A stretch of DNA of 44,054 nucleotides, from IMG/VR virus record IMGVR_UViG_3300029494_000008. One strand, given 5' to 3'. The DNA comes from a virus. The notes under the pieces are model-generated. The model was not told the origin of the DNA and searched no databases. It was given only the letters and a program-made list of their open reading frames with translations. The position numbers were made by a program, and so were the translations under genes. Shown piece after piece: positions 1 through 44,054 of this stretch (positions are counted from its first letter, which is position 1; every line of letters begins with the position of its first letter).

Positions 1-123
1 CGACAGTATCACCCACACGGTGGGCGGAGGATACACCATGGAAATGGAACTGTCCCTGGTGGAGGCCATGACCGAGGAAGTGATCAAGGACGCCACGGAG
101 CGCCTGGCGGCGGTGGGCGTCAT
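1..123. repeat. Terminal direct repeat copy 1. It is identical to 43932-44054 and marks either a circular-assembly overlap or true terminal redundancy.
   Basis: Base-by-base comparison shows 'cgacagtatcacccacacgg...gcggtgggcgtcat' at both window ends. The offset is 43,931. Confidence 0.95.
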
Positions 124-370
124 GGACAGCCCGGAATACTGGGTGCAGCATTACAAGGACGTGGCCAACCTGGACGGCCTGATCCTGAACATGGCCACCC
201 GGATCAAGACCAACCTGGGCGGTAGCAGTATCACCACCGTGGACGACGCCCTGGACGTGCTGACCCGCACCGGCGTGATCAACTCCCCGGACTACTGGGC
301 CAGCAAGCACAGCGCCCTGGCGTGGCTGGATCGGCTGCTGATCAATGCCGCCAACGCCCTGACCGAGTAA
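1..370 (+). CDS. 3' part of the gpD-like baseplate hub gene that starts at 43009 and wraps across the window ends. It encodes a C-terminal extension with two ~40-aa 'GV(I/M)xSP(D/E)YW' repeats.
   Basis: The frame of ORF 20..370 is continuous with the open frame 43009..44054 once the 43,931 offset is applied. The combined length is 1293 nt (431 codons including the stop). The stop is at 368-370. Confidence 0.8.
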   Translation, partial: DSITHTVGGGYTMEMELSLVEAMTEEVIKDATERLAAVGVMDSPEYWVQHYKDVANLDGLILNMATRIKTNLGGSSITTVDDALDVLTRTGVINSPDYWASKHSALAWLDRLLINAANALTE

Positions 371-380
371 GGAGGAGCCA

Positions 381-773
381 ATGAAGGGAGAAATTCGCCT
401 GGGGAAAATATCGTCCATCGACTACGCCAAGGGCATGGCCCGGGTGGTGTACCACGAAAAGGACGACGACGTGACGCGCCTGATCCCCCTTCTCTCCCAT
501 GAGTACAAAATGCCCCCGGTGGGGTCCCAGGTCCTTGTGGTCCACCTGTCCAACGGGACGGAGGCCGGCGTGGTCCTGGGCCGGCCGTGGAGCGAGAAGA
601 ACGTGCCGCCGGAGGGCGGGGCCACACTGTACCGGAAGGACCTGGGGCAGAACCCCGGGGACGCCATGATCCGGTACGACGGCAGCACCCTGACCATCAA
701 ATGCACCGGTGCCATCAACATCGAGGCCGGCGGGGCCATCACCATCAACGGCGCCACCATCGACCTGAATTAA
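381..773 (+). CDS. Baseplate spike / assembly protein V-like.
   Basis: 130-aa ORF with SD 'aaggagg' 6 nt upstream. It lies between the gpD-like hub gene and the PAAR, gpW and gpJ genes, and its size and N-terminal pattern resemble the gpV family. Confidence 0.6.
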   Translation: MKGEIRLGKISSIDYAKGMARVVYHEKDDDVTRLIPLLSHEYKMPPVGSQVLVVHLSNGTEAGVVLGRPWSEKNVPPEGGATLYRKDLGQNPGDAMIRYDGSTLTIKCTGAINIEAGGAITINGATIDLN

Positions 774-788
774 AAGGAGGCGGGAACC

Positions 789-1127
789 ATGCCAAACGCG
801 GCAAGACTGACGGACGCGGTGGACGGGACCACCGCCGGGGAACATTCGGGGCACGTGCCCCCACACTCCCCCGAACCATTCACCGGGGAGATCTCCGGGG
901 CCTGTTCCGGGGACGTGCGGGTGAACGGCCTGGCGGCCGCGACGGTGGGAAGTATCACCACCGAGCGGGACGGGTGCTGTGGATCCAGCCAGGGCGCGGT
1001 GGCGGCAGGCAGCGGAACCGTGCGGATCAACGGAAAAGCGGCGGCCCGCACCGGCGACGCCCTGGCCCCCCATAGCGGGAGCGGGACCATCACCGGAGGC
1101 AGCGCCACCGTGCGGATCGGAGGGTAA
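789..1127 (+). CDS. PAAR-domain spike-tip protein.
   Basis: 112 aa. It has PAAR-like motifs 'MPNAARLTD' and 'GKAAARTGD' and is Gly/Cys/His-rich. It sits directly after the spike gene. Confidence 0.65.
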   Translation: MPNAARLTDAVDGTTAGEHSGHVPPHSPEPFTGEISGACSGDVRVNGLAAATVGSITTERDGCCGSSQGAVAAGSGTVRINGKAAARTGDALAPHSGSGTITGGSATVRIGG

Positions 1128-1130
1128 ACC

Positions 1131-1526
1131 ATGGCCATCGGAACACTGGGAAGAAAGATCGTTTTTGAGGTGAGCGACGACCGGGTTTTTACGTTTTCGG
1201 AAATGACCCGGGAGATCACGAGCCGGTGGGCCAACCACGAACCCCAGGGGGTCAAGCCAAAGCCGGAGTTTTTGGGCGCCGGCCTGCAGACGGCCAGCCT
1301 GACGATCACCATTTCCGCCACCCTGGGGGTCCGCCCCCGGGACGTGCTGGAGGCCATCGAGAACATGGTGGAGAGCGGCACGGCGGAAACCCTGGTGATC
1401 GGCAACAGGCCGGTGGGAAACAACCCCTTCCGCCTGACCGGATCGAGCGAAACCTGGGGCGTGGTGTATAACCGGGGCGAACTGGCCAGGGCCTCCGTGA
1501 CCATCAACCTGGAGGAGTACACATGA
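1131..1526 (+). CDS. Tail protein, P2 GpU-like.
   Basis: 131 aa. The pattern '...SRWANHEP...PEFLGAGLQTASLTITI...LEEY' resembles the GpU family. It lies in the baseplate cluster. Confidence 0.45.
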   Translation: MAIGTLGRKIVFEVSDDRVFTFSEMTREITSRWANHEPQGVKPKPEFLGAGLQTASLTITISATLGVRPRDVLEAIENMVESGTAETLVIGNRPVGNNPFRLTGSSETWGVVYNRGELARASVTINLEEYT

Positions 1527-1828
1527 ACGAAACCGGCGTTTACGACTTCAAACTGGAATACACCTTCGCCGGCGACTACATGGCAGAACTGGACCGGCAA
1601 CTGGCCCTGCTCCTGTCCACGCGGGAGGGCACCATGCCCCTGGATCGGGAGTTCGGCCTGAACATGGACTTTGTGGATATGCCGCCGGAGGTGGCCAAAA
1701 GCCTATACACGGCGGAGGTCACGGAGAAGGTGGCCAAGTTTATCCCCACGGTACGGGTCCAGGAAGTCAAATGGAGCAGCGGAGGACAAGCGAATTTAAT
1801 TGCAAAGGTGGTGATCACAAGTGCCTGA
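1523..1828 (+). CDS. Baseplate wedge protein gpW/gp25-like.
   Basis: 101 aa. It overlaps the previous stop and lies immediately upstream of the gpJ-like gene. The '...LLSTREGTMPLDREFG...' pattern is typical of the GPW_gp25 family. Confidence 0.7.
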   Translation: MNETGVYDFKLEYTFAGDYMAELDRQLALLLSTREGTMPLDREFGLNMDFVDMPPEVAKSLYTAEVTEKVAKFIPTVRVQEVKWSSGGQANLIAKVVITSA

Positions 1829-2978
1829 CGAAATGAACGCGATCAAGAGCCTGCCGGACATTTCTTTCATCGACAACAAGGACATTGACCAGGTGCGGCA
1901 GGAAATGGTGGCGGACTATGAAAGTTTTATTTCCGAGGCCACCGGCCAGACCGTGACCCTGGAGCGGTCCAGCGTCCACCGTATGGAACTTTACGCGGCG
2001 GCGGCGCAGATCTACCAGGCCATGCAGTACATTGACCGACAGGGAAAGCAAAGTATCCTGAAATACTCCTATTCGGATTTTCTGGACAACCTGGCCATTT
2101 TTAAGGGCGTGACCCGGAACCCGGCCACGCCGGCCACCACCACCCTGCGCTTTACCCTTTCGGCGGAGCGGGACACGGCCACCGGGATCCCCCAGGGGAC
2201 CCGAGTTTCTACGGCCGGCGCCATCTACTTCGCCACGGACGTGTATGCGGAGATCCCGGCGGGGTCCACCACCGTGGACGTGCCGGCCACCTGCACGGTG
2301 GCGGGCACGGACGGAAACGGGTTCGCCGCCGGAGAACTGGCCACCATTGTGGATCCGATCCCCTACGTGGCCAGCGTGACCAACACGACAGCCACCGAGG
2401 GCGGCGCGGAGATCGAGAGCGACGACGACCTGGCGGAACGGGTTTTCCTGGCCCCTGGGGCCTATTCTACGGCCGGACCGGAGGACGGATACCTGTACCA
2501 CGCCAAGGCGTACAGCGCCGCCATAGGCGACGTGGTGGCCACCAGCAACCAGGCGGCGGGGACCGTGGACATTGTTTTCATCATGGCGGACGGCAGCACC
2601 CCGGGGGAGGAAATGATCGAGGGCCTGGAGGGATACCTGCAGGGCAAGACGATCCGGCCCATGACGGACCTGGTACGGGTGGCCGCGCCGCAAGAGGTCA
2701 CGTACACCATCAACCTGACCTATTACATCAACCGGAGCGACAGCGCCAAAGCTGTGACCATCCAGGCGGCGGTGGCCCAGGCCGTGGCGGACTATCAGAC
2801 ATGGCAAAGGGCAATCGGGCGGGATATTAACCCCTCCCAACTGGTCCGCATGATCATGGACGCGGGCGCCAAGCGCGTGACCGTGACGGCCCCCACATAC
2901 ACCGCCGTGGACGCCACCAAGGTGTCCGCCCTCCAGGGGGACGCCGTGATCAGTTACGGAGGGCTGGAGGATGATTAA
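1821..2978 (+). CDS. Baseplate J-like protein.
   Basis: 385 aa with a GTG start overlapping the upstream gene. Size and synteny (W-J-I-fibre) fit. Confidence 0.75.
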   Translation: MPDEMNAIKSLPDISFIDNKDIDQVRQEMVADYESFISEATGQTVTLERSSVHRMELYAAAAQIYQAMQYIDRQGKQSILKYSYSDFLDNLAIFKGVTRNPATPATTTLRFTLSAERDTATGIPQGTRVSTAGAIYFATDVYAEIPAGSTTVDVPATCTVAGTDGNGFAAGELATIVDPIPYVASVTNTTATEGGAEIESDDDLAERVFLAPGAYSTAGPEDGYLYHAKAYSAAIGDVVATSNQAAGTVDIVFIMADGSTPGEEMIEGLEGYLQGKTIRPMTDLVRVAAPQEVTYTINLTYYINRSDSAKAVTIQAAVAQAVADYQTWQRAIGRDINPSQLVRMIMDAGAKRVTVTAPTYTAVDATKVSALQGDAVISYGGLEDD

Positions 2979-3624
2979 ACTTTCCGGGAGCCGGTTCACG
3001 GACATTATGCCGGAAAACCTGGCCAGCCAGGTGGAAACCCAGGCTTTCGCCTACGCGGTGGGACGGCAGATCGAAAAACTGTGCGCCTACTCCGACGCGG
3101 CAAGGACCTACGCGGCCATAGCGACCATGCCGGAGTGGCTGCTGGACTATATGGCCGTAGAACTTCGCACCCCGTCCTATGATGAAAACTATTCCCTGAA
3201 AACCAAACGGGCGCTGATCCAGGGGTCCCTCCTGTTTTACACGCAGATGGGGACGCCGGCGGCGGTGAACCGGATCATTGAAACCATCTTTGAAACCGGG
3301 TACATCGAGGAATGGTACGAGTATGACGGGGATCCCCACCACTTCCGCGCCTACGTAGGCGACGGCGGAGAGGTGGGGCCGGGGGAACTGGAGGAGTTCC
3401 GGCGGGTCCTGTCCTCCGTCAAGCGCCTTTCGTCGTGGCTGGATGATATTATCACGATCACCGCCATGGACCCGGATATGGTGACGTTTACGGGGACCAT
3501 GGGGAAGGGCTACACGTCCACGCCCCTGCCGGAGGCGGCGGTGGACTACCACCTGGAGGACATGATCCGAGCGGGCGGAACATTCGGCACCATTACACAA
3601 ACCGCCATCCCGGCGGCAATCTAA
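2971..3624 (+). CDS. Tail protein I-like (P2 gpI / XkdU-like).
   Basis: 217 aa. It overlaps the gpJ stop and precedes the tail fibre gene. Confidence 0.65.
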   Translation: MIKLSGSRFTDIMPENLASQVETQAFAYAVGRQIEKLCAYSDAARTYAAIATMPEWLLDYMAVELRTPSYDENYSLKTKRALIQGSLLFYTQMGTPAAVNRIIETIFETGYIEEWYEYDGDPHHFRAYVGDGGEVGPGELEEFRRVLSSVKRLSSWLDDIITITAMDPDMVTFTGTMGKGYTSTPLPEAAVDYHLEDMIRAGGTFGTITQTAIPAAI

Positions 3625-3639
3625 ACAGGAGGAAAACCC

Positions 3640-6159
3640 ATGTTTTACGGATTTGTAATCACCGAGGCAGGAAACAGCCTGCTGGCCAGCATGGTGGCGG
3701 GCCAAACCCTGACCATCACAAAGGCGGTCGTGGGCGAGGGCACCGCAGACAACGCGGAGGCCGCCAGGAAGTTGACAAACCTGATCACCCCGGGGCCGGA
3801 GGCCACCAGCACCGAGCCGACGGTGGACGGGAACAACGTCAACATGATCGTGGAGTATCGGTCCGACCTGAACGGCGGCCTGCAGGAAGGGTTCTGGATC
3901 GGTGAATTTGGCATTTTCGGCAAGGTGGGGAACGGCGCGGAAACCATGATCGGGTACGGTTCCCTGGGCGACGCCAAGCAGTACGTGAGCGCCTACGTGG
4001 CCGGGGCCGCCCCGGACGTGCGCCGGTATCCCGTTTCCATCACCGTTACCACCGGGATCCAGGTTGACGTGGCATACCCGGCGGAGGCGTGGATGACCGC
4101 CGAGGACGTGGCGGAATACTTCAACCAGACATTGAAACCCGACCTGGAGGAGAGCCTGCAGGACCTGATCGACGACCACAACGAGGACCCGGACGCCCAC
4201 GGCGGCGCCCTGGAGGGCAAGCAGGACCAGATCAAGGCGGAGGGGATCCTGAAAGGGACCAAGACCACCACCGAGGAGGGCGACACGTACAGCGTGGGCG
4301 CGGCCACGCCTGGCACCGACTACCAGGCCCCCACCAACGCCCTGACAGCGGCGGCGGCCATGACCACCCAGGACCTGATCCCCTTCTATGACGTGGCGAC
4401 CGGCCAGCACAAGCGGACCACCCTGCAGGCGCTGAAAGAGGCCATCGGAGTGCAAAGCCCGGCCATCAACGTGACCACCTGCGCGGGGGCCTCCGTGACC
4501 TGTTCGGACGGCGTGACCACCCTGGAGGGCACCGGGTCAACGGAGTTTGAACTGCCAAACGTCGGAAACTGGACCGTGACCGCCACCCTGGACGGGGAGA
4601 GCGTGTCCGAGGTGGTGGAGGTGAGCGGCGCCCTGCTGTATGAGGTGGACCTGATGATCACGAGCGGGATCGCCGTGACGGCACAGCCGGACAAGACCAC
4701 CTATTTCATCGGGGAGGAGTTCGACCCGGAGGGCATGGTGGTAACGGCCACCTTTGCCGACGACACCACCGCAGACGTGACCGAGGACTGCACCTTCTCC
4801 CCGGAAACCATGGCGGCGGGCACCCAATCCGTGACCATTACATACGTCCGGGCGGGCGTCACCAAGACCGCCACGGTGGCGGTGGCGGTGCGGACCCTGG
4901 ACCATATCGCCGTGACCACGCCGCCCAATAAGACGGCCTACAAGTACGGGGAAACCTTCCAGCCGGCGGGCATGGTGGTGACGGCCTACTACACCGACGA
5001 AACCAGCCGGACGGTGACGGGGTACACCTACTCCCCCACCGGCGCCCTGGACATGGACGACACCACGATCACCGTTTCCTACACGGAGGGGAGCGTGAGC
5101 AAGCAGACCACCCAGGCCATCACCGTGGCCAAGGTGCTGGAGAGTATCGAGATCACCACGCCCCCCAACAAAACCGCCTATTTCTCCGGGGAAACCTTCA
5201 ACCCGGCGGGCATGGTGGTGACGGCCCACTACAACGACGGGAGCAGCGCGGCGGTGACGGGGTACACCTACTCCCCCACCGGCGCCCTGGCCACGGGCAA
5301 CACCACGATCACCGTTTCCTATGCGGAGGGCGGCGTGACCAAGACGGACACCCAGGCCATCACCGTGACCGCGATCTCCAACACCCTGAACAGCAATTCC
5401 TGGGCCACCATCAAGGCCGTTTCGGACGCCGGGCAGGGCGCAAACTACTGGGACGTAGGCGACACCAAGCAGATCACGATCAACGGACAGGTGGGAAATA
5501 CGAACATTTCCAACCTGGCGATCAACGTGTTTATTATCGGGTTCAACCACAACGCCAGCCGGGAGGGTTCCAACCGGATCCACTTCAAGATCGGCAAAAT
5601 CGGCAGCACCCAGGTGGGCCTCTGTGATAACCAGTATAGCAATTACCAGAGCGGAAACGGGTATTTCAACATGAACCCGAACAACAGCAACAGCGGCGGG
5701 TGGGCCAACTGCCACATGAGAAAGACGATCCTGGGATCCGACGCAAGCCCCACCAGCCCACGGGCAAACACCCTGCTGGCGGCCCTGCCGGCGGACCTCC
5801 GGGCCGTTATGAAACCGATCACCAAGTATTCGGACAACACCGGCGGCGGCAACAATACGGCCAGTTACGTGACCAGCACCACGGACTACCTGCCCCTGCT
5901 TTCGGAGTTCGAGTACCACGGCGCCCGGACCTATGCCAACAGCGCGGAGCAGAACTTCCAGCAGCAGTACGCCTATTATCAGGCGGGCAACAGCAAGGTG
6001 CATTACAAGCACAACGCCACCGGCACGGCGGCCTTTGCGTGGTGCCGGTCCGTCATTGCGACGAACACGAACGGTTTCTGCCGTGTCAACACCAACGGCA
6101 ACGCCAACAGCAGCGACGCGTACTATTCCTGGGCCGTGGCCGCCGGCTTTGCGGCCTAA
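3640..6159 (+). CDS. Tail fibre / receptor-binding protein and DGR target. It has three Ig-like repeats and a C-terminal variable region.
   Basis: 839 aa with SD 'aggagg' upstream. The three 80-aa repeats follow the pattern 'xPxKTxYxxGExFxPxGMVVTAxY...'. The last 126 nt before the stop pair with the template repeat at 6762-6887. Confidence 0.85.
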   Translation: MFYGFVITEAGNSLLASMVAGQTLTITKAVVGEGTADNAEAARKLTNLITPGPEATSTEPTVDGNNVNMIVEYRSDLNGGLQEGFWIGEFGIFGKVGNGAETMIGYGSLGDAKQYVSAYVAGAAPDVRRYPVSITVTTGIQVDVAYPAEAWMTAEDVAEYFNQTLKPDLEESLQDLIDDHNEDPDAHGGALEGKQDQIKAEGILKGTKTTTEEGDTYSVGAATPGTDYQAPTNALTAAAAMTTQDLIPFYDVATGQHKRTTLQALKEAIGVQSPAINVTTCAGASVTCSDGVTTLEGTGSTEFELPNVGNWTVTATLDGESVSEVVEVSGALLYEVDLMITSGIAVTAQPDKTTYFIGEEFDPEGMVVTATFADDTTADVTEDCTFSPETMAAGTQSVTITYVRAGVTKTATVAVAVRTLDHIAVTTPPNKTAYKYGETFQPAGMVVTAYYTDETSRTVTGYTYSPTGALDMDDTTITVSYTEGSVSKQTTQAITVAKVLESIEITTPPNKTAYFSGETFNPAGMVVTAHYNDGSSAAVTGYTYSPTGALATGNTTITVSYAEGGVTKTDTQAITVTAISNTLNSNSWATIKAVSDAGQGANYWDVGDTKQITINGQVGNTNISNLAINVFIIGFNHNASREGSNRIHFKIGKIGSTQVGLCDNQYSNYQSGNGYFNMNPNNSNSGGWANCHMRKTILGSDASPTSPRANTLLAALPADLRAVMKPITKYSDNTGGGNNTASYVTSTTDYLPLLSEFEYHGARTYANSAEQNFQQQYAYYQAGNSKVHYKHNATGTAAFAWCRSVIATNTNGFCRVNTNGNANSSDAYYSWAVAAGFAA
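4657..5376 (+). repeat. Three tandem 240-bp in-frame coding repeats (4657-4896, 4897-5136, 5137-5376) encoding bacterial Ig-like (Big_3-like) domains.
   Basis: Repeats 2 and 3 share long identical strings, for example 'ccggcgggcatggtggtgacggcc' and 'gtgacggggtacacctactcccccaccggcgccctgg'. Confidence 0.85.
6025..6150 (+). repeat. DGR variable repeat (VR) at the 3' end of the tail fibre gene.
   Basis: It aligns without gaps to 6762-6887. There are 12 differences, and 11 of them fall at template adenines. Confidence 0.9.
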
Positions 6160-6181
6160 TCCGGCGGAGCAATCGGGGAAA

Positions 6182-6207
6182 ATCCCGCCCACGGAAGTGG
6201 GCGGGAT
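6182..6207 (+). promoter_or_regulatory. GC-rich hairpin downstream of VR, a candidate DGR target-recognition stem-loop.
   Basis: 'atcccgcccac' (6182-6192), loop 'ggaa', then 'gtgggcgggat' (6197-6207). This is a perfect 11-bp stem with no U-tract after it. Confidence 0.6.
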
Positions 6208-6240
6208 CCTGCCGAACACACACCGAGAGGAGGGGCGGCC

Positions 6241-6699
6241 ATGTCTGTCCTGAAAAGCAAGCGATCCACCAGCAAGGCGGAGTATGTGAACCTGGCCAAT
6301 GAGATTTACACGGAAACCGTGGCATTTTTGACCCGGCTTTCCGCCAGGTACGCCCGCCTGCTGGCGGAGCCGGTGGCGGCGCTGGCCGGGGAGGTGATCG
6401 ACCAGACGGAAAAGGCGAACAGCATTTTTCCAAAGGGAGAGCCGAACCTGGGCCTGCGGAAAGGCCACCTGCTGGAGGCCAGGGCCGCGCTTATGGCCCT
6501 GGACGTGCGCCTGGGACACTGTTACACCATCCTGGCGCTGAACCCGCAGGGGTGCTTTACCAAGCCGGACGGGAAAAGTGTACCGCCGGCGGAGGCCACC
6601 AAGAAACTGGATGATATGTCGCAGAGCCTGGGCGAAAAGATCGACCGGGAAAACGAACTGATCCGGGCCGTTCTGGAGAGCGACCGGAAAAGAAAATAA
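6241..6699 (+). CDS. avd: Accessory variability determinant (Avd)-like small basic helical protein.
   Basis: 152 aa, Lys/Arg-rich and predicted helical. It occupies the canonical position between the target gene and TR. SD 'gagaggagggg' lies upstream. Confidence 0.5.
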   Translation: MSVLKSKRSTSKAEYVNLANEIYTETVAFLTRLSARYARLLAEPVAALAGEVIDQTEKANSIFPKGEPNLGLRKGHLLEARAALMALDVRLGHCYTILALNPQGCFTKPDGKSVPPAEATKKLDDMSQSLGEKIDRENELIRAVLESDRKRK

Positions 6700-6761
6700 A
6701 TCACTGGCCATTTGGGTGTATCTCTGAAAACGTGCCGAGTGGCAGGGCGGCGGGTGCTTTG

Positions 6762-6887
6762 ACGGCGGCCAATGCGTGGTGCCGGTCCGTCAATGCGACG
6801 AACACGAACAATTTCTGCCTTGTCAACACCAACGGCAACGCCAACAACAACAACGCGAACAATTCCTGGGCCGTGGCCGCCGGATTT
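6762..6887 (+). repeat. DGR template repeat (TR).
   Basis: 126 nt with 33 adenines by hand count. There are 14 AAY codons in the VR-equivalent frame. It ends in an adenine-free 20-mer 'tcctgggccgtggccgccgg' that is shared with VR. Confidence 0.9.
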
Positions 6888-7112
6888 CACAACCCCGCGA
6901 GGGGAACGGGTCAAATGCAGTAGGAAACGAACCGGACCCTTTGTGAAAGGAGAGATACTGCCCGGGCCAAAAACCCGAAACCGCACTCTGTGGCCACTTC
7001 ACGGACGCTGCTTGCATGGCGGGCCTATTGTGCTAACCCCGTTTCATGTGAAGGGGCTACGCGTTTAGCCGCACACCTACACCACAACCGCACGGAGGCG
7101 CGAAAAAAATAT
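6888..7112 (+). ncRNA. TR-to-RT spacer, the probable non-coding 3' part of the DGR RNA.
   Basis: It lies between the TR end and the RT start codon. It has no convincing CDS and contains small GC stems, for example 'cccc gcga gggg' at 6893-6904. Confidence 0.4.
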
Positions 7113-8240
7113 ATGACCAGTGAGGAGCGCCGGGAGGCGCGATACCATAGACGACAGGCCGCCCGGGAGGCGCGGCGAAGGAAACGCAGCGAGGACCTGG
7201 GCGGGATCGCCCAGGCGTTCAGTTTCCGAAAAATGTTCAAATGGGGAAAGAAGTGCTGTAACAATGTCCGGTGGAAACAATCCACGCAGAATTTTGAACG
7301 GCACCTGTTTTCCGGCACGGCCCGCAGGCGGCGGGAAGTTTTATCCGGGAAGTGGCGGCCAAAGCCGGGCGCCCATTTCCTTCTCCGGGAGCGGGGCAAA
7401 ATCCGGCCCATAGACGCCCCGCACATCAACGACCGGCAGATCCACAAAACCCTGACCAAGGAGGTGCTGGAGCCGCTATACACGCCGGGCATGATCCGGC
7501 GGAACGGCGCCAGCCAAAAGGGAAAGGGACTGTCCTTCCACCATGAGGAACTGAAACGGATCCTGCGGGAGCATTTCAGAAAACACGGCCGGGAGGGTTA
7601 CGTGGTCCTTATGGACCTAAAGCAGTTCTTTCCCTCCGCGCCCCATGCGGCAATCTACGAGCGCCACCGGCGCCTGATCCTGGACCCGGAGATCCGGGCG
7701 GTGGCGGACACGGTGGTGGCCGCTGTGCCGGGCGGCGTGGGTATGCCCCTGGGCGTGGAGCCGTCGCAGATGGAAATGGTGTCCCTGCCGTCCGCCGTGG
7801 ACAACTGGATCGCCTGCCAACTGCGGGCGGAGGATCCGGCCCACTATATGGACGACTACCACATGATCGCGGAAACCAAGGAGCAGGCGGAGGCGTTCCG
7901 GGACGCCGTGACCGAGCGCATGGAGGCCATGGGGCTGACCGTGAGCCGGAGAAAAACCAAGATCGTGCCGCTGTCCAAACCCTTCCGGTTCTGCAAGGTA
8001 AAATTCCAACTGAAACCCACCGGGAGAGTGATCACCCACGGGAACCGGGACGGGATGAAACGGGCGCGGCGGAAACTGCGGGCGTTCAAGGCCAAGGTGG
8101 ACGCCGGGGAAATGACCGTCCAGCAGGTGCGGGCGTGGCTGACCAGCCAGATCGCCTATTTCGAGAACTACAACGACCACGGCCGGGTCCTCCGGCTGAA
8201 CCGGATATTTCATGCAATTTACGGAGGTGCAGAACCATGA
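7113..8240 (+). CDS. DGR reverse transcriptase.
   Basis: Motifs seen are 'LMDLKQFFPS', 'PLGVEPSQ' (the LGxxxSQ signature of DGR RTs) and 'YMDDYHMIA' (YxDD). I chose the ATG at 7113 with 'ggagg' upstream. The track start at 6990 is probably an artefactual extension. Confidence 0.9.
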   Translation: MTSEERREARYHRRQAAREARRRKRSEDLGGIAQAFSFRKMFKWGKKCCNNVRWKQSTQNFERHLFSGTARRRREVLSGKWRPKPGAHFLLRERGKIRPIDAPHINDRQIHKTLTKEVLEPLYTPGMIRRNGASQKGKGLSFHHEELKRILREHFRKHGREGYVVLMDLKQFFPSAPHAAIYERHRRLILDPEIRAVADTVVAAVPGGVGMPLGVEPSQMEMVSLPSAVDNWIACQLRAEDPAHYMDDYHMIAETKEQAEAFRDAVTERMEAMGLTVSRRKTKIVPLSKPFRFCKVKFQLKPTGRVITHGNRDGMKRARRKLRAFKAKVDAGEMTVQQVRAWLTSQIAYFENYNDHGRVLRLNRIFHAIYGGAEP

Positions 8241-8917
8241 TCAAGATCATCAAAGACGGGACAAGCCTGGGAATGACCGAGGCGCCCACCTACGTGCGGC
8301 AGGCGGAAAACGGGTGCTTTGTGCTGTGCCGGGAGGCGGAGGCCACGGGGATCACCCACAACGGCACCGTGTACCACCTCCTGGGCCGGGAGGCCCTGGA
8401 GGGGGCGGAGAGCGTGATCCTGGAGGCGGCGGACGCCGGCGCGGAGATCCAGGCGGCCGGAGAGAGCGCGGCCAACAACGCCAAACTGTCCGGCCAGTTG
8501 TCGGCGGCGGCCAAGTTGTACGTGCAGGCGGCCACGGACGTGCCGGACGAAACGGCGCTGGAAATGCCGGACCTGTTCAAGACCTGGGAGGAGGTCCTGG
8601 CGGCAGGCCAGAACGTGGCGCAAAATGCCATCATCAACGACGGCGGGACCCTGTACCGCGTTGTGGCGGCCGGCGGCGTCCTCCCCCAGGAACACCAGCC
8701 GCCCCACGGGGAGGGTATGCTGGCGGTGTACCGGCCCATTGACACGGCCCACGCGGGCACCCTGGAGGACCCGATCCCGTGGGTGTACGGGATGGACTGC
8801 ACCGAGGGCCTGTACTACTCCTATAACGCCACCGTGTACCTGTGCAAGGCCAATATGACGCCCTGCGTATGGGCGCCGGGAACGGCCGGCCTGTGGCAAT
8901 GGGAGGCGGTGGAGTAA
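8237..8917 (+). CDS. Hypothetical protein, possibly fibre-associated, with CBM5/12-like W...Y...W motifs.
   Basis: The ATG at 8237 overlaps the RT stop (ATGA), and SD 'ggagg' lies 9 nt upstream. Motifs include 'LFKTWEEV...GTLYRVV...' and 'YYSYNATVYLCKAN...LWQWE'. Confidence 0.6.
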   Translation: MIKIIKDGTSLGMTEAPTYVRQAENGCFVLCREAEATGITHNGTVYHLLGREALEGAESVILEAADAGAEIQAAGESAANNAKLSGQLSAAAKLYVQAATDVPDETALEMPDLFKTWEEVLAAGQNVAQNAIINDGGTLYRVVAAGGVLPQEHQPPHGEGMLAVYRPIDTAHAGTLEDPIPWVYGMDCTEGLYYSYNATVYLCKANMTPCVWAPGTAGLWQWEAVE

Positions 8918-9939: not shown

Positions 9940-10335
9940 ATGAATATGCCTTTGATCGCGGCGGCCGCCATGGCCGGCGGGGCGCTGCTGGGCTTTTCCT
10001 TGTGCTGGGCCGCCACAAGGCTGGCCGGCGGAAACCACGCAGCGGCCGCACGGCTGGCCACCGCCGCAAAGAAGAAAATGGGGACCATGGACAAGGTGCT
10101 GATCCTGGAGGGCGTGATCCTGGTGGCCTATACGGCGGCGGACCTGGCCGTGTTCTGGCACACCGGGAACGAGCCTGCCACCCTGACCGCCTGCGTGTTC
10201 GGCGTGTGCGGTTTTGAAAACGGGGTCATGGGATGGATCAAGACCACAAAGGAAAAGGTGCGGGACCGGCGCTGGGAACAGGAGGACCGGGAGCGCATGA
10301 GGAAAGAAGAACAGGAGGCGCAAAACAATGGGTAA
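9940..10335 (+). CDS. Holin-like membrane protein.
   Basis: 131 aa with about three hydrophobic segments and a highly charged C-terminus. Its stop overlaps the endolysin start. Confidence 0.55.
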   Translation: MNMPLIAAAAMAGGALLGFSLCWAATRLAGGNHAAAARLATAAKKKMGTMDKVLILEGVILVAYTAADLAVFWHTGNEPATLTACVFGVCGFENGVMGWIKTTKEKVRDRRWEQEDRERMRKEEQEAQNNG

Positions 10336-11374
10336 AATGAAAGCCAATGTATTCGTGGAAAAGGCGGTGGAGATCGCCAAGAACTTCAAAACCCTGTACG
10401 TTATGGGCTGTTTCGGGGCACCGCTGACGGGTTCCAACGTGAGCCGCTACTGCAATAACCATTCATACAACCGGGCGGCAGACCGCACGGCCATGATCAA
10501 GGCGGCGGGAAACCAAAACCCGCCCGTATATGGCTTTGACTGCGTGTGCCTGATCAAGGGCATTTTGTGGGGGTGGAGCGGGAACACCTCCAAGACCTAC
10601 GGCGGAGCCAATTATGCCAGCAACGGGGTCCCGGACATAGGGGCGGACACCATGATCACCAGGTGCCTGGACGTTTCCACAACCGGATGGGCCAACATGG
10701 CCGTGGGTGAAGCGGTGTGGATGTCCGGCCATATCGGAATTTACATCGGGGACGGCCTGGCGGTGGAGTGTTCCCCAAAGTGGGAAAACAAGGTGCAGAT
10801 CACGGCCGTGGGGAACATCGGGAGCAAAGCGGGGTACAACACGCGGACCTGGACCAAACACGGAAAACTGCCCTATGTGGATTACTCCGAGAGCGGGACG
10901 ACCACCGGCGGCGGGACCGCGACAAAGCCGGACACCGGCGGCGCCACCATCTACAAGGTAGCGGCCGGGGACAACCTCTCCAAGATCGCGGCCAAGTATG
11001 GCACCACCGTGGACGCCCTGGCGGAGATCAACGCCATCCAAAACAAGAACCTGATCCGCGTGGGCCAGGTGCTTATGCTCCAGGATACACCCCAGGCGGC
11101 GGCCGACAAACTGGAGGCCCTGGGCGTGATCAACTCCCCGGACTACTGGGCGGAGGCGGCGGAGGCCGGAAAGGTCCAATACCTGGACATTCTGCTGAAA
11201 AAGGCCGCGCAGACCATCACAAAGGCCGGGGTGCGGACGGATACGCCCCAGGAGGGCGTGGCCGCGCTGGTGGCCGCCGGCGTGATCAATACGCCGGAAT
11301 ACTGGCTGGCCAACTATGGCACATTCCCCAGCCTGGACCTGCTGCTGCAGGCGCTGGGCGGGGCTGTGAAATAA
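10328..11374 (+). CDS. Endolysin: NlpC/P60-like cysteine peptidase, LysM, and two C-terminal 'GVINxP(D/E)YW' repeats.
   Basis: 'FDCVCLIKG...GHIGIYIGDG...ECS' is a Cys-His peptidase pattern. 'YKVAAGDNLSKIAAKYGTTVDALAEINAI' is a LysM motif. SD 'aggagg' lies 9 nt upstream. Confidence 0.8.
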   Translation: MGKMKANVFVEKAVEIAKNFKTLYVMGCFGAPLTGSNVSRYCNNHSYNRAADRTAMIKAAGNQNPPVYGFDCVCLIKGILWGWSGNTSKTYGGANYASNGVPDIGADTMITRCLDVSTTGWANMAVGEAVWMSGHIGIYIGDGLAVECSPKWENKVQITAVGNIGSKAGYNTRTWTKHGKLPYVDYSESGTTTGGGTATKPDTGGATIYKVAAGDNLSKIAAKYGTTVDALAEINAIQNKNLIRVGQVLMLQDTPQAAADKLEALGVINSPDYWAEAAEAGKVQYLDILLKKAAQTITKAGVRTDTPQEGVAALVAAGVINTPEYWLANYGTFPSLDLLLQALGGAVK

Positions 11375-43012: not shown

Positions 43013-44054
43013 GGACACGGAGAGCGGAAACGGATCTGACCTGGAACGGCGCGGCCGTCACCAGCAAAATGGTGGGCTACAAGGCCACCGTGACCTATAC
43101 GGACGCGGCCAGCGGCGAGGCGGACAGCCTGGAGATCAGCATGAACGACCGGGACCGCCAATGGACCACGGCGTGGATGCCGAAAACCGGGGACACCCTG
43201 ACGGCCGCCATTAAGGTGTACGACTGGGAGCGGGAGGGCGACAACCGGACACTGGACTGCGGATTTTTCATCCTGGACAATTACAGTTTTTCGTGGTGGC
43301 CCATGACCGGGACCATTTCGGCCGTGTCGGTGCCGGCGGATAGCGCTTTCCGGGCGACGCAGCGGACCAAGACCTGGGAAAAGGCCACCCTGCAGGCCAT
43401 AGGAAACGAGATCGCGGCCAGGGCGGGCATTACCCTGACCTGGGACGTGGAGGGGGAACCCATTACCGTCGAAAGCGTGGAGCAATCCGAGCAAACGGAC
43501 TGCGAGTTTTATATGAGCCTGTGCGAGGAATACGGCCTTTCCATGAAGGTGTACGCCCAAAAAATCGTGGTGTACGACCGGGAGCAGTACAAGGAGCGGG
43601 ACGTGGCGGGCACCATCCGGGAAAGCGAGATCGAAAGCGGTTCCTGGAATACCACCCTTGACGGGACCTATACCGGCGGGGAATACACCTACACGGACCC
43701 GAATACCGAGGAGGAGATCAAGGTCACGGTGGGGACGGGAACCCGGATCCTGAAACAATCCGGCAAGGCCGACAACAAGGCCGACGCGGAGCGCAAGATC
43801 ACGGCGGCGGTGGCCAACGCCAACCACGGCGCCACCACCCTGTCCCTGACCATCATGGGGCGGCCGGACCTGGTGGCCAGCCAGTGCGTCACCGTGGTGG
43901 GGATCGGCCGCCTCTCCGGCAAGTATTTTATCGACAGTATCACCCACACGGTGGGCGGAGGATACACCATGGAAATGGAACTGTCCCTGGTGGAGGCCAT
44001 GACCGAGGAAGTGATCAAGGACGCCACGGAGCGCCTGGCGGCGGTGGGCGTCAT
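43009..44054 (+). CDS. gpD-like baseplate hub protein (late control D / XkdQ-like). This is the 5' part. It continues past the window end and finishes at position 370.
   Basis: The ATG at 43009 overlaps the gpX stop. The frame stays open to the window end. Hand translation gives MRTRRAETDLTWNGAAVTSKMVGYKATVTYTDAASGEADSLEISMNDRDRQW..., a gpD-like pattern. Confidence 0.75.
   Translation, partial: MRTRRAETDLTWNGAAVTSKMVGYKATVTYTDAASGEADSLEISMNDRDRQWTTAWMPKTGDTLTAAIKVYDWEREGDNRTLDCGFFILDNYSFSWWPMTGTISAVSVPADSAFRATQRTKTWEKATLQAIGNEIAARAGITLTWDVEGEPITVESVEQSEQTDCEFYMSLCEEYGLSMKVYAQKIVVYDREQYKERDVAGTIRESEIESGSWNTTLDGTYTGGEYTYTDPNTEEEIKVTVGTGTRILKQSGKADNKADAERKITAAVANANHGATTLSLTIMGRPDLVASQCVTVVGIGRLSGKYFIDSITHTVGGGYTMEMELSLVEAMTEEVIKDATERLAAVGV
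43932..44054. repeat. Terminal direct repeat copy 2, identical to 1-123.
   Basis: Same 123-nt string as the window start. Confidence 0.95.

Follow-up and report, generated by a model that had tools for sequence, protein, structure and literature searches.

Evidence for a complete diversity-generating retroelement with an RT-2 template RNA in the tail-fibre module of a Flavonifractor-type gut phage

Does the region at 3640-8240 of a 44-kb viral genome (IMG/VR record IMGVR_UViG_3300029494_000008; the window is the whole stretch of 44,054 nucleotides that was analysed) make up a complete diversity-generating retroelement (DGR), and if so, which protein does it diversify and from what template RNA? 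The window is the circularly permuted genome of a gut phage whose host lineage is Flavonifractor/Oscillospiraceae, and the cassette sits within its baseplate/tail-fibre module. A DGR had been predicted here from the letters alone, and this was borne out by open reading frames and a gap-free repeat pair lying where the original prediction had placed them. All four canonical parts are present, and the order runs from the target gene through the avd-like gene, TR and the spacer RNA to the reverse transcriptase (RT) gene (Table 1); the predicted overlap of the RT stop with the next start is seen as an ATGA at 8237-8240. The same cassette, with an adenine-biased repeat pair and identical order, is carried by 38 loci when the window is counted with its 37 relatives. 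Among deposited phage genomes, those nearest to the window are ~72% identical at the nucleotide level, and the cassette is left unannotated there. We conclude with high confidence that the locus is a complete DGR of BPP-1 architecture which diversifies the tail-fibre tip of a Flavonifractor-type Oscillospiraceae phage, a type of DGR already described in gut phages. The original prediction did not include the RT-2 RNA in the TR-RT spacer, the hairpin past VR or the helices formed by distant stretches of the RNA.

Table 1. Coordinates of the DGR features in the window
Feature	Position	Strand	Basis and remarks
Target gene, 839-aa tail fibre	3640-6159	+	ORF; PHROG 7037, PHROG 37900
VR	6025-6150	+	Repeat comparison; encodes aa 796-837; diversified portion ~6034-6124
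Target-site hairpin/cruciform	6182-6207	+	11-bp GC-rich stem ATCCCGCCCAC / GTGGGCGGGAT, GGAA tetraloop
avd-like accessory gene, 152 aa	6241-6699	+	ORF; PHROG 30516 (6e-68); predicted helical bundle
5' strand GGG-U-GUAUCUCU of long-range RNA duplex bracketing TR	6714-6725	+	Covariation, helix 1
TR	6762-6887	+	33 adenines; 10 AAC and 4 AAT codons in VR frame
Extreme 3' end of TR, UUUCAC, pairing with spacer	6885-6890	+	Blind covariation scan, helix 2
Spacer RNA, Rfam RF03077 (RT-2), full-length	6906-7121	+	125.6 bits (gathering score 40), E 3e-30
DGR reverse transcriptase, 375 aa	7113-8240	+	RVT_1 9e-15; PHROG 1423 2e-71; motifs LGVEPSQ, YMDD

VR and TR align over 126 nt with no gaps and 12 mismatches, 11 of which fall at TR adenines. 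As TR contains 33 adenines in 126 nt, the binomial probability of at least 11 of 12 mismatches at adenines is 3.6e-6. One of these 11, TR A6884 against VR C6147, marks the boundary of the repeat: it is fixed in all of the related loci listed and is not a product of mutagenesis, though it is counted among the adenine mismatches; the lone non-adenine mismatch in the window (TR T6820 / VR G6083) is recurrent. When 11 distinct TR/VR pairs are pooled, mismatches occur at 152 of 359 TR adenines versus 7 of 1027 other bases, and the Big_3 domain repeats of the same genes, which provide an internal control, show unbiased mismatches. VR is in phase 0 in the tail-fibre ORF and covers 42 codons at its end, stopping short of the last two. 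With 32 of the 33 adenines at codon positions 1 or 2, and with 14 codons of AAY type, the resulting variation is non-synonymous and stop-free: no stop codon can be reached by substituting adenines in TR. The hypervariable protein columns of the homologs coincide with the TR AAY codons. No second VR was found anywhere in the window when both strands were searched.

The identity of the target as a tail fibre, also predicted originally, is upheld by the PHROG 7037 tail fibre match over the N-terminal 220 aa (2e-40; PHROG 37900 matches at 8e-114) and by the preceding genes, which encode Baseplate_J (1821-2978) and Tail_P2_I (2971-3624). The N-terminal tail-fibre domain (aa 1-220) is followed by three Big_3 Ig-like repeats (1.4e-21) and by a DUF6273-type domain (~aa 578-839), the end of which is formed by VR. 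The window protein itself matches DUF6273 (Pfam PF19789) at 16.3 bits (E 0.009) against a Pfam cut-off of 23.5; the family is matched by 39 of 46 target homologs (65-91% identical; best match 2.6e-12), and most database relatives carry a precomputed DUF6273 annotation. In the AF2 model of this domain the pLDDT is 68.6 overall and below 50 over VR, and the model has no PDB match. Similarity by way of the homologs suggests that the target scaffold is of DUF6273 type. As a lectin-like target of gut-phage DGRs, DUF6273 has already been published (PMC11792537, PMC10743442), so the suggestion that the scaffold might belong to a less-studied class does not hold.

The gene between VR and TR had been described as encoding a small, basic, helical, avd-like protein. 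Its product is indeed modelled as helical (AF2 pLDDT 87.9, four long helices) and is mildly basic (pI 9.1, net charge +3.7). Foldseek returned 2gsc (probability 1.0), with viral proteins named "Avd-like" or "bAvd-like" at ranks 2-5 and 23; the top matches have probabilities of 0.99-1.0 but weak E-values of 0.03-0.5. Fold and position thus agree with the description, whereas sequence homology to bAvd was not detected: Pfam bAvd (PF22296) matched none of 37 family members at E-values up to 10 and none of 43 at E-values up to 1, with bAvd itself, the positive control, scoring 123 bits; hhalign of the family against bAvd gave a probability below 1%; and profile searches of PDB sequences with the family gave no match. 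Together with the length of the protein, 152 aa versus 128 aa for bAvd, these results are what would be seen if it were not an Avd homolog, but an unrelated helical accessory in the Avd position or a plain conserved phage gene. We consider this rather unlikely, though it is the most credible of the alternatives, given the confidently predicted helical bundle and a position that is always between VR and TR: these are 620-830 nt apart in all 38 loci, and a homolog is annotated between them in Dulem virus 34. The protein can be called Avd-like in its modelled fold, charge and position only.

The spacer between TR and RT carries a match to RT-2 that spans model positions 1-222 of 222 and reaches the RT start codon, the ATG at 7113 being kept in relatives (alignment A4). 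A full-length RT-2 lies directly 3' of TR in 13 of 13 relatives, at 118-175 bits. Within the spacer, a primer-like GUGAAA (6943-6948), whose last base A6948 is invariant, is followed by a GG linker (6949-6950) and a cPRT-stop-like strand AGAGAUAC-UG-CCC (6951-6963); a short stem-loop comes next, at 6964-6976, and then an A-run at 6978-6980. Helix 1 joins 6714-6725 to 6951-6963 by 11 pairs, 100% paired, six of which have changes on both sides, while helix 2 joins 6885-6890 to 6943-6948 by six pairs, 98.8% paired, four with changes on both sides. Helix 2 was the clear top of a blind covariation scan, with nine extra pair types versus four for the runner-up, and as it was found by scanning the same sequences its statistics are somewhat optimistic. 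Taken together, the two helices are 99.6% paired with 10 of 17 pairs compensatory, values equalled by none of 500 shuffles. In the Rfam consensus of RT-2 the stretch "GUGAAAGGAGAGAUACUUCCC" is unpaired; in the window it forms two covarying helices with partners outside the model, at the 3' end of TR and in the flank upstream of TR.

The template RNA of this DGR is the RT-2 motif, folded as in BPP-1. The pairing of the two helices is supported by covariation, and by analogy they would act as the template-primer and cPRT-stop duplexes of BPP-1, with 6714-6725 as the counterpart of the strand that avd contributes to the latter. The base adjacent to UUUCAC, A6884, is kept unchanged at 27 of 27 loci and is the predicted first templating base, with A6948 as the predicted primer. 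In the literature covered, RT-2 has no assigned function, and among the "RT" motifs of Weinberg et al. 2017 only RT-10 (now Phage_DGR) was linked to a DGR (PMC5737381), and a literature search on RT-2 and DGRs found no further link; the main point of interest of this locus is that it ties the Rfam RT-2 motif to DGRs. The window's clade also has an additional small hairpin at 6733-6744, in the segment that separates the upstream strand from TR.

At the target site, the 3' end of VR contains a GC-rich, IMH-like block (6131-6146) followed by the fixed C6147, where TR has an A. The target-site hairpin begins 31 nt past the end of VR/TR homology; it is 96% paired in alignment A5 with 7 of 8 pairs compensatory, compared to 37-50% for slid controls, and its loop has the conserved form GNNA. 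No terminator was called at this hairpin, and a T-run is absent. DGR target hairpins have been described as having a GC stem of 7-10 bp and a GRNA loop (PMC3240598), a description which this hairpin fits, and a GC-rich IMH-type boundary is present as well.

Variation directed at adenines was expected among related genomes, and it is found both in the pooled pairs and against a near relative. Between the window and a Flavonifractor An100 prophage (L028), 22 of 33 adenine-templated VR sites differ, as opposed to 2 of 93 other VR sites, at a background divergence outside VR of 2.8%. A further locus, L003, has exactly the TR of the window, yet its VR differs, at adenine sites. With 67% of adenine-templated sites changed at 2.8% divergence, homing would be recent on the genome's own timescale, and this comparison of related genomes argues for DGR diversification in the window's lineage. 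The single non-adenine TR/VR mismatch could represent drift after the last homing event, as might be seen in a fossil DGR that once worked in this lineage and is now inert in this particular genome, with VR frozen. Such a fossil appears very unlikely in light of this turnover between close genomes, the intact RT ORF with its catalytic YMDD, the 14 AAY codons retained in TR, and the RNA helices and target hairpin, all of which are intact in the window.

An RT of DGR type with LGxxxSQ and YMDD motifs had been anticipated, and it is recognised as such by its closest solved structure together with these motifs. Among solved structures the RT comes closest to Brt of the Bordetella phage (8ub7; E 1.3e-13), with group II intron RTs at ~4e-4. 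The RT and Brt share 25% identity over 305 columns (E 2e-19), with LGVEPSQ aligned to IGSLTSQ of Brt and YMDD to YMDD. Group II, retron and DRT models (NCBIfam, PADLOC) gave generic, sub-threshold matches only. The proposal that it is nonetheless a retron, group II intron, Abi or DRT enzyme beside a 126-nt ordinary duplication or gene-conversion tract draws on those weak matches and is effectively refuted, since they fall far under the cut-offs (71 vs 300 bits for a group II maturase model, 21 vs 235 bits for another of the matches), Brt itself gives the same pattern, a maturase/endonuclease domain and intron RNA are absent, the Big_3 control repeats show no bias, and adenine-specific mismatches in 38 independent loci mean that ordinary duplication cannot be their source. 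The DGR reading thus holds on the two points at which the original prediction said it could fail, the affinity of the RT and adenine-directed variation in related genomes.

Combining these observations, we propose that a transcript of approximately 6714-7121 would fold through helices 1 and 2, placing spacer A6948 as a cis-primer beside template base A6884, in positions that may correspond to Sp A56 and TR G117 of BPP-1. The RT, with the Avd-like helical protein, would copy TR into cDNA with misincorporation at adenines, as would be consistent with the adenine-specific TR/VR differences observed. This cDNA would then replace VR at the 3' end of the tail-fibre gene, probably guided by the GC-rich block and the GGAA hairpin, both of which are conserved, the hairpin with covariation. 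Stop-free recoding of the 14 AAY codons would allow ~10^19 possible protein variants, and the outcome would be a diversified receptor-binding tip on the DUF6273-type domain.

A comparison with BPP-1 (mtd-avd-TR-brt) shows extensive agreement in architecture. Like BPP-1, the window has this gene order, a VR at the 3' end of the tail-fibre gene, an adenine-only mutagenesis signature with an AAY-rich TR, and an RT homologous to Brt. In both, VR has a GC-rich block at its 3' end, and a hairpin with a GC stem and a GRNA tetraloop lies downstream of it. In both spacers the primer strand pairs with the 3' end of TR; a linker of 2 nt follows, then 11 bp of duplex formed with the upstream flank, then a short stem-loop and adenosines. 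Unlike BPP-1, the window has a target domain dissimilar to Mtd (hhalign probability 0.7%) and a longer accessory protein in which similarity to bAvd is undetected. The spacer of BPP-1 belongs to Phage_DGR (RF03022) and that of the window to RT-2, the initiation base is G in BPP-1 versus a predicted invariant A in the window, TR/VR homology past this base extends for 17 nt versus 3 nt, and the small hairpin in the window's clade is extra relative to BPP-1. In keeping with the definition of the RF03077 family, RT-2 in the window lies immediately upstream of the RT gene. A DUF6273 domain with a C-terminal VR is also found in gut-phage DGR targets (PMC11792537, PMC10743442, bioRxiv 2024.10.15.618418), and from published descriptions the comparison extends to the Faecalibacterium prophages Lelie, CP11, Roos and Pioen and to other gut phages with DUF6273 targets, the tentaclin phages nd4 and nd12 and Toutatisvirus. 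The window differs from these in its Flavonifractor/Oscillospiraceae host lineage and in its single target with no second VR, and shares with them a Bacillota host and a target gene with Ig-like repeats.

The cassette is a complete diversity-generating retroelement (DGR). Its architecture is the commonest one, and it diversifies the C-terminal tail-fibre tip of an Oscillospiraceae phage. An ORF map and a repeat finder place the co-directional reading frames and the repeat pair at exactly the positions given in the original prediction, and its interpretation of these parts as a DGR was borne out by an adenine-biased TR/VR pair, an RT with affinity to Brt (the RT of the model Bordetella phage BPP-1), and adenine-directed variation among relatives. 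The repeat pair, the sole long direct repeat in the region, spans 126 nt without gaps at 90% identity. Base-by-base comparison yields 12 mismatches, 11 of which fall at adenines of the RT-proximal copy; with 33 A in the 126 nt of the TR, the chance of 11 or more of 12 mismatches landing on adenines is 3.6e-6. As an internal control, mismatches between the Ig-like domain repeats of the same gene are spread evenly over all four bases. Read in the VR frame, the TR contains 10 AAC and 4 AAT codons, 32 of its 33 adenines occupy codon position 1 or 2, and stop codons are beyond the reach of any adenine substitution. In theory ~10^19 proteins can be encoded, a range of variants open to the receptor-binding tip and relevant to the host range of the phage among Oscillospiraceae in human and animal guts. 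An adenine-tolerant scan of both strands of the window, remote sites included, found no second VR. The lone non-adenine mismatch (TR T6820 vs VR G6083, Leu to Arg) recurs in three lineages, those of the window and of the related loci L001 and L014, with the T kept in other VRs; in the TR of the distant locus L020 this column is A. It could represent a rare non-adenine misincorporation under selection or a change in the TR after the last homing event.

Related loci were gathered by RT search (25 viral and 26 genome loci), and two phage records were added by nucleotide search. Among cellular genomes, a prophage of Flavonifractor sp. An100 carries the closest copy (RT identity 98%), with more remote copies found in Oscillospiraceae, Acutalibacter, and Christensenellaceae. 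Of the phages on deposit, Dulem virus 34 and MT835543 come nearest, at ~72% identity, and neither record annotates the cassette. When repeats were detected independently, 38 loci, the window among them, proved to carry an adenine-biased pair of TR and VR, arranged in the same order. Across 11 distinct pairs of the window's clade, TR and VR differ at 152 of 359 adenines vs 7 of 1027 non-adenine positions. VR variation among related genomes, on which the original prediction was to stand or fall, is present and adenine-directed: between the window and the An100 prophage, whose flanks are 2.8% divergent, the VR differs at 22 of 33 adenine-templated positions (67%) and at only 2 of 93 others. A further relative, L003, has a TR identical to that of the window and a VR that differs at adenine-templated sites. 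The DGR in the window has apparently been active recently. Matches to window positions 43044-44054 and 1-8460 lie on one stretch of the An100 prophage locus, an arrangement suggesting that the 44,054-bp window (62% GC) represents a phage genome that is circularly permuted and probably complete.

The RT matches RVT_1. Among solved structures its best relative is 8ub7, deposited under the name "Reverse transcriptase" with a chain of 328 aa (E 1.3e-13, vs ~4e-4 for group II intron RTs). In a BLASTP alignment of 305 columns with Brt (328 aa), 25% of positions are identical (E 2e-19). The predicted LGxxxSQ and YMDD motifs are both present, LGVEPSQ aligning with IGSLTSQ of Brt and YMDD with YMDD. 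NCBIfam holds no DGR-specific RT model; against its group II, retron, and DRT models the RT scores far below cut-offs, and Brt itself gives the same generic PADLOC match pattern as the window RT. The RT stop overlaps the start of the next gene (ATGA), which extends to 8917 (PHROG 27545) and carries a swapped C-terminal module. Positions 8461-8904 (aa ~118-226) are without homology in the four closest relatives checked (the An100 prophage, L003, L001, and L006), which carry a different ~390-nt segment in their place, and the more distant Dulem virus 34 has a full-length homolog (66% aa). There seems to be a mosaic or a hotspot of diversity here, immediately after the DGR. Farther on, a 67-nt direct repeat (11083-11149 and 11239-11305, 73% identical) lies inside ORF 10328-11374, which is probably a lysin with the repeat reflecting two domain copies, since the annotation of its Dulem virus 34 counterpart is LysM protein. 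In L019, a related viral contig, a match to the type II hammerhead ribozyme (RF02276, 40.9 bits, gathering score 37) was found at 10564-10652 on the minus strand, ~3.5 kb downstream of the DGR RT.

The target occupies a tail-fibre position, downstream of Baseplate_J and P2 gpI-type genes. Its N-terminal 220 aa match a PHROG tail fibre (2e-40), three Big_3 Ig-like repeats are present, and the C-terminal region matches PHROG 37900 (8e-114). Across 46 aligned C-terminal domains from homologs, the scaffold keeps the same residues throughout (W, C, R, S, F, C, and others), and the AAY-encoded positions are without consensus. The window target scores 16.3 bits against DUF6273, below the cut-off of 23.5; this family is matched by 39 of the 46 target homologs and annotated on most of more than 5,700 database relatives. 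DUF6273 proteins with a C-terminal VR have been described as C-type-lectin-like DGR targets in Faecalibacterium prophages (PMC11792537), tentaclin phages (PMC10743442), and Toutatisvirus. The AF2 model of the C-terminal domain is of low quality over the VR, where hypervariable columns make this expected, and is too uncertain there for a fold to be read from it; a Foldseek search of the PDB returned chance matches only. The domain found nothing meaningful among PDB sequences, and hhalign detected no similarity between the target profile and Mtd, the BPP-1 target. The proposal that the scaffold is not Mtd-like holds, but not its tentative placement in a less-studied class, as the DUF6273 class has already been described.

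The 152-aa protein is Avd-like by fold, charge, and position, as had been proposed, but not by sequence. It has no Pfam or NCBIfam match, and PF22296, the Pfam family of the BPP-1 accessory protein bAvd, was reached by none of 37 close or 43 diverse relatives, the scans giving noise only. The diverse set was drawn from an exhaustive profile search that delimits the Avd-position family at 546 clusters at 50% identity. Comparison of the accessory-family profiles with bAvd by hhalign was negative, and neither the protein nor its two profiles found anything meaningful among PDB sequences. The protein is confidently predicted to be a helical bundle (AF2 pLDDT 87.9), with 2gsc, a small helical-bundle protein whose entry comprises chains A-E, as the best PDB match to the model (probability 1.0, TM 0.8 on target). 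In a viral structure library, ranks 2-5 and 23 are named "Avd-like" or "bAvd-like domain". Its pI of 9.1 compares with 9.55 for bAvd and a published Avd mean of 9.5 +/- 0.7, avd genes being "very poorly conserved" (PMC5758913). If this assignment is true, DGR surveys relying on Avd HMMs would score the clade as Avd-less, and a family invisible to the Pfam bAvd profile may inflate counts of such DGRs.

The spacer between TR and RT is a full-length match to the Rfam RNA RT-2 (RF03077; 125.6 bits, gathering score 40), an element absent from the original prediction. All 13 relatives tested likewise have RT-2 at full length, in each case immediately following the TR; the BPP-1 spacer, run as a control, matches a different family, RF03022 Phage_DGR. 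The paper describing the RT motifs tied only RT-10 to a DGR and speculated on the others (PMC5737381), and we found no link between RT-2 and DGRs in the later literature searched. Motif inspection and a column-pair covariation scan located two long-range helices, the second of which is the clear top match of the blind scan. Together, 99.6% of their cells are paired and 10 of 17 pairs show changes on both sides; the observed pairing or covariation score was reached by 0 of 500 shuffles, with slid controls at 46-80%. In the Rfam consensus the spacer strands of both helices are unpaired. A small conserved hairpin precedes the TR in the window's clade and is absent from a more distant one (L018, L019, L034-L046), where the upstream strand lies only ~12-17 nt from the TR, as in BPP-1. 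The likely ribosome-binding site of the RT (GGAGG, 7094-7098) lies inside the RT-2 closing helix and the Rfam model extends through the RT start codon, so RT translation and the folding or unfolding of this template RNA may be coupled.

Coding, repeat, and RNA or DNA structural features of the cassette (window positions; A4, contiguous alignment of 27 distinct loci; A5, alignment used for the target-site hairpin)
Feature	First element	Second element	Details
Target gene	3640-6159		+ strand, 839 aa
VR and TR	6025-6150 (VR)	6762-6887 (TR)	direct repeat
Target-site hairpin	6182-6207		31 nt downstream of VR/TR homology end; 11-bp GC stem, GGAA loop
Avd-like gene	6241-6699		+ strand, 152 aa
Helix 1	GGG-U-GUAUCUCU upstream of TR, 6714-6725	AGAGAUAC-UG-CCC, 6951-6963	A4
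Helix 1, joint change	GUAUUUCU upstream of TR	AGAAAUAC in spacer	
Helix 1, joint change	GUGUCUUU upstream of TR	AAAGACAC in spacer	
Helix 1, joint change	GCAUCUCU upstream of TR	AGAGAUGC in spacer	
Helix 1, joint change	GUGUUCCU upstream of TR	AGGAACAC in spacer	
Small conserved hairpin	6733-6744		UGCC-GAGU-GGCA, between upstream duplex strand and TR
Helix 2	UUUCAC, TR 3' end, 6885-6890	GUGAAA, 6943-6948	A4
RT gene	7113-8240		+ strand; start ATG conserved among relatives (A4)
Gene overlapping RT stop	8237-8917		

At the 3' boundary of the repeats, the last "mismatch" (TR A6884, VR C6147) has C in the VR and A in the TR in every locus listed and is a non-mutagenic difference of the IMH vs IMH* type. 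C6147 lies directly 3' of a GC-rich block (6131-6146), and TR/VR homology stops 3 nt on. Nearly all relatives have the hairpin beyond it at this position, its loop following the pattern G-N-N-A and its stem varying from clade to clade; in A5, 96% of cells are paired (37-50% in slid controls), with compensatory changes at 7 of 8 pairs. A role as an intrinsic terminator was rejected: the hairpin lacks a T-run and was not called as one. The hairpin fits the hairpin/cruciform that BPP-1 homing requires, which has a 7-10 bp GC stem and a GRNA loop and lies 4-34 bp from the VR (PMC3240598).

In conclusion, the DGR itself is ordinary; what is moderately novel is RT-2 as a DGR RNA with BPP-1-like long-range architecture, together with the profile-undetected Avd-position family. 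We lean, with moderate confidence, towards the reading that RT-2, hitherto an orphan RT-associated motif, is the template-flanking RNA of a large Bacillota gut-phage DGR clade, that its conserved "single-stranded" core forms two long-range helices (with the TR 3' end and the flank upstream of the TR) that rebuild the BPP-1 cis-priming/cPRT-stop (cis-primed reverse transcription) architecture from unrelated sequence, and that the same clade uses an Avd-position family undetectable by current Avd profiles and appears to start cDNA synthesis opposite an adenine that is invariant and never transferred to the VR. This would provide a functional assignment for RT-2, with covariation-backed long-range helices missing from the current model, and a distant lineage would lend independent comparative support to the cis-priming/cPRT-stop architecture, whose structure has so far been solved for BPP-1 only. 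The RNA arrangement of the BPP-1 cryo-EM RNP (bioRxiv 10.1101/2023.10.23.563531) is reproduced in the window. Spacer positions Sp 47-56 in BPP-1 and Sp 56-61 (6943-6948) in the window form the primer strand, paired to the 3' end of the TR, and a 2-nt linker follows in both (Sp 57-58 in BPP-1; GG, 6949-6950, in the window). By analogy with BPP-1, the invariant A6948 may be the priming nucleotide and the invariant A6884 the first template base, the latter fitting the fact that 6884 is never copied into the VR. The upstream-flank duplex is 11 bp with one unpaired U in BPP-1 and 8 + 3 bp interrupted by a small internal loop in the window; after it, BPP-1 has a short stem-loop and adenosines A80 and A81, and the window a GGG...CCC stem-loop (6964-6976) and GAAAC.
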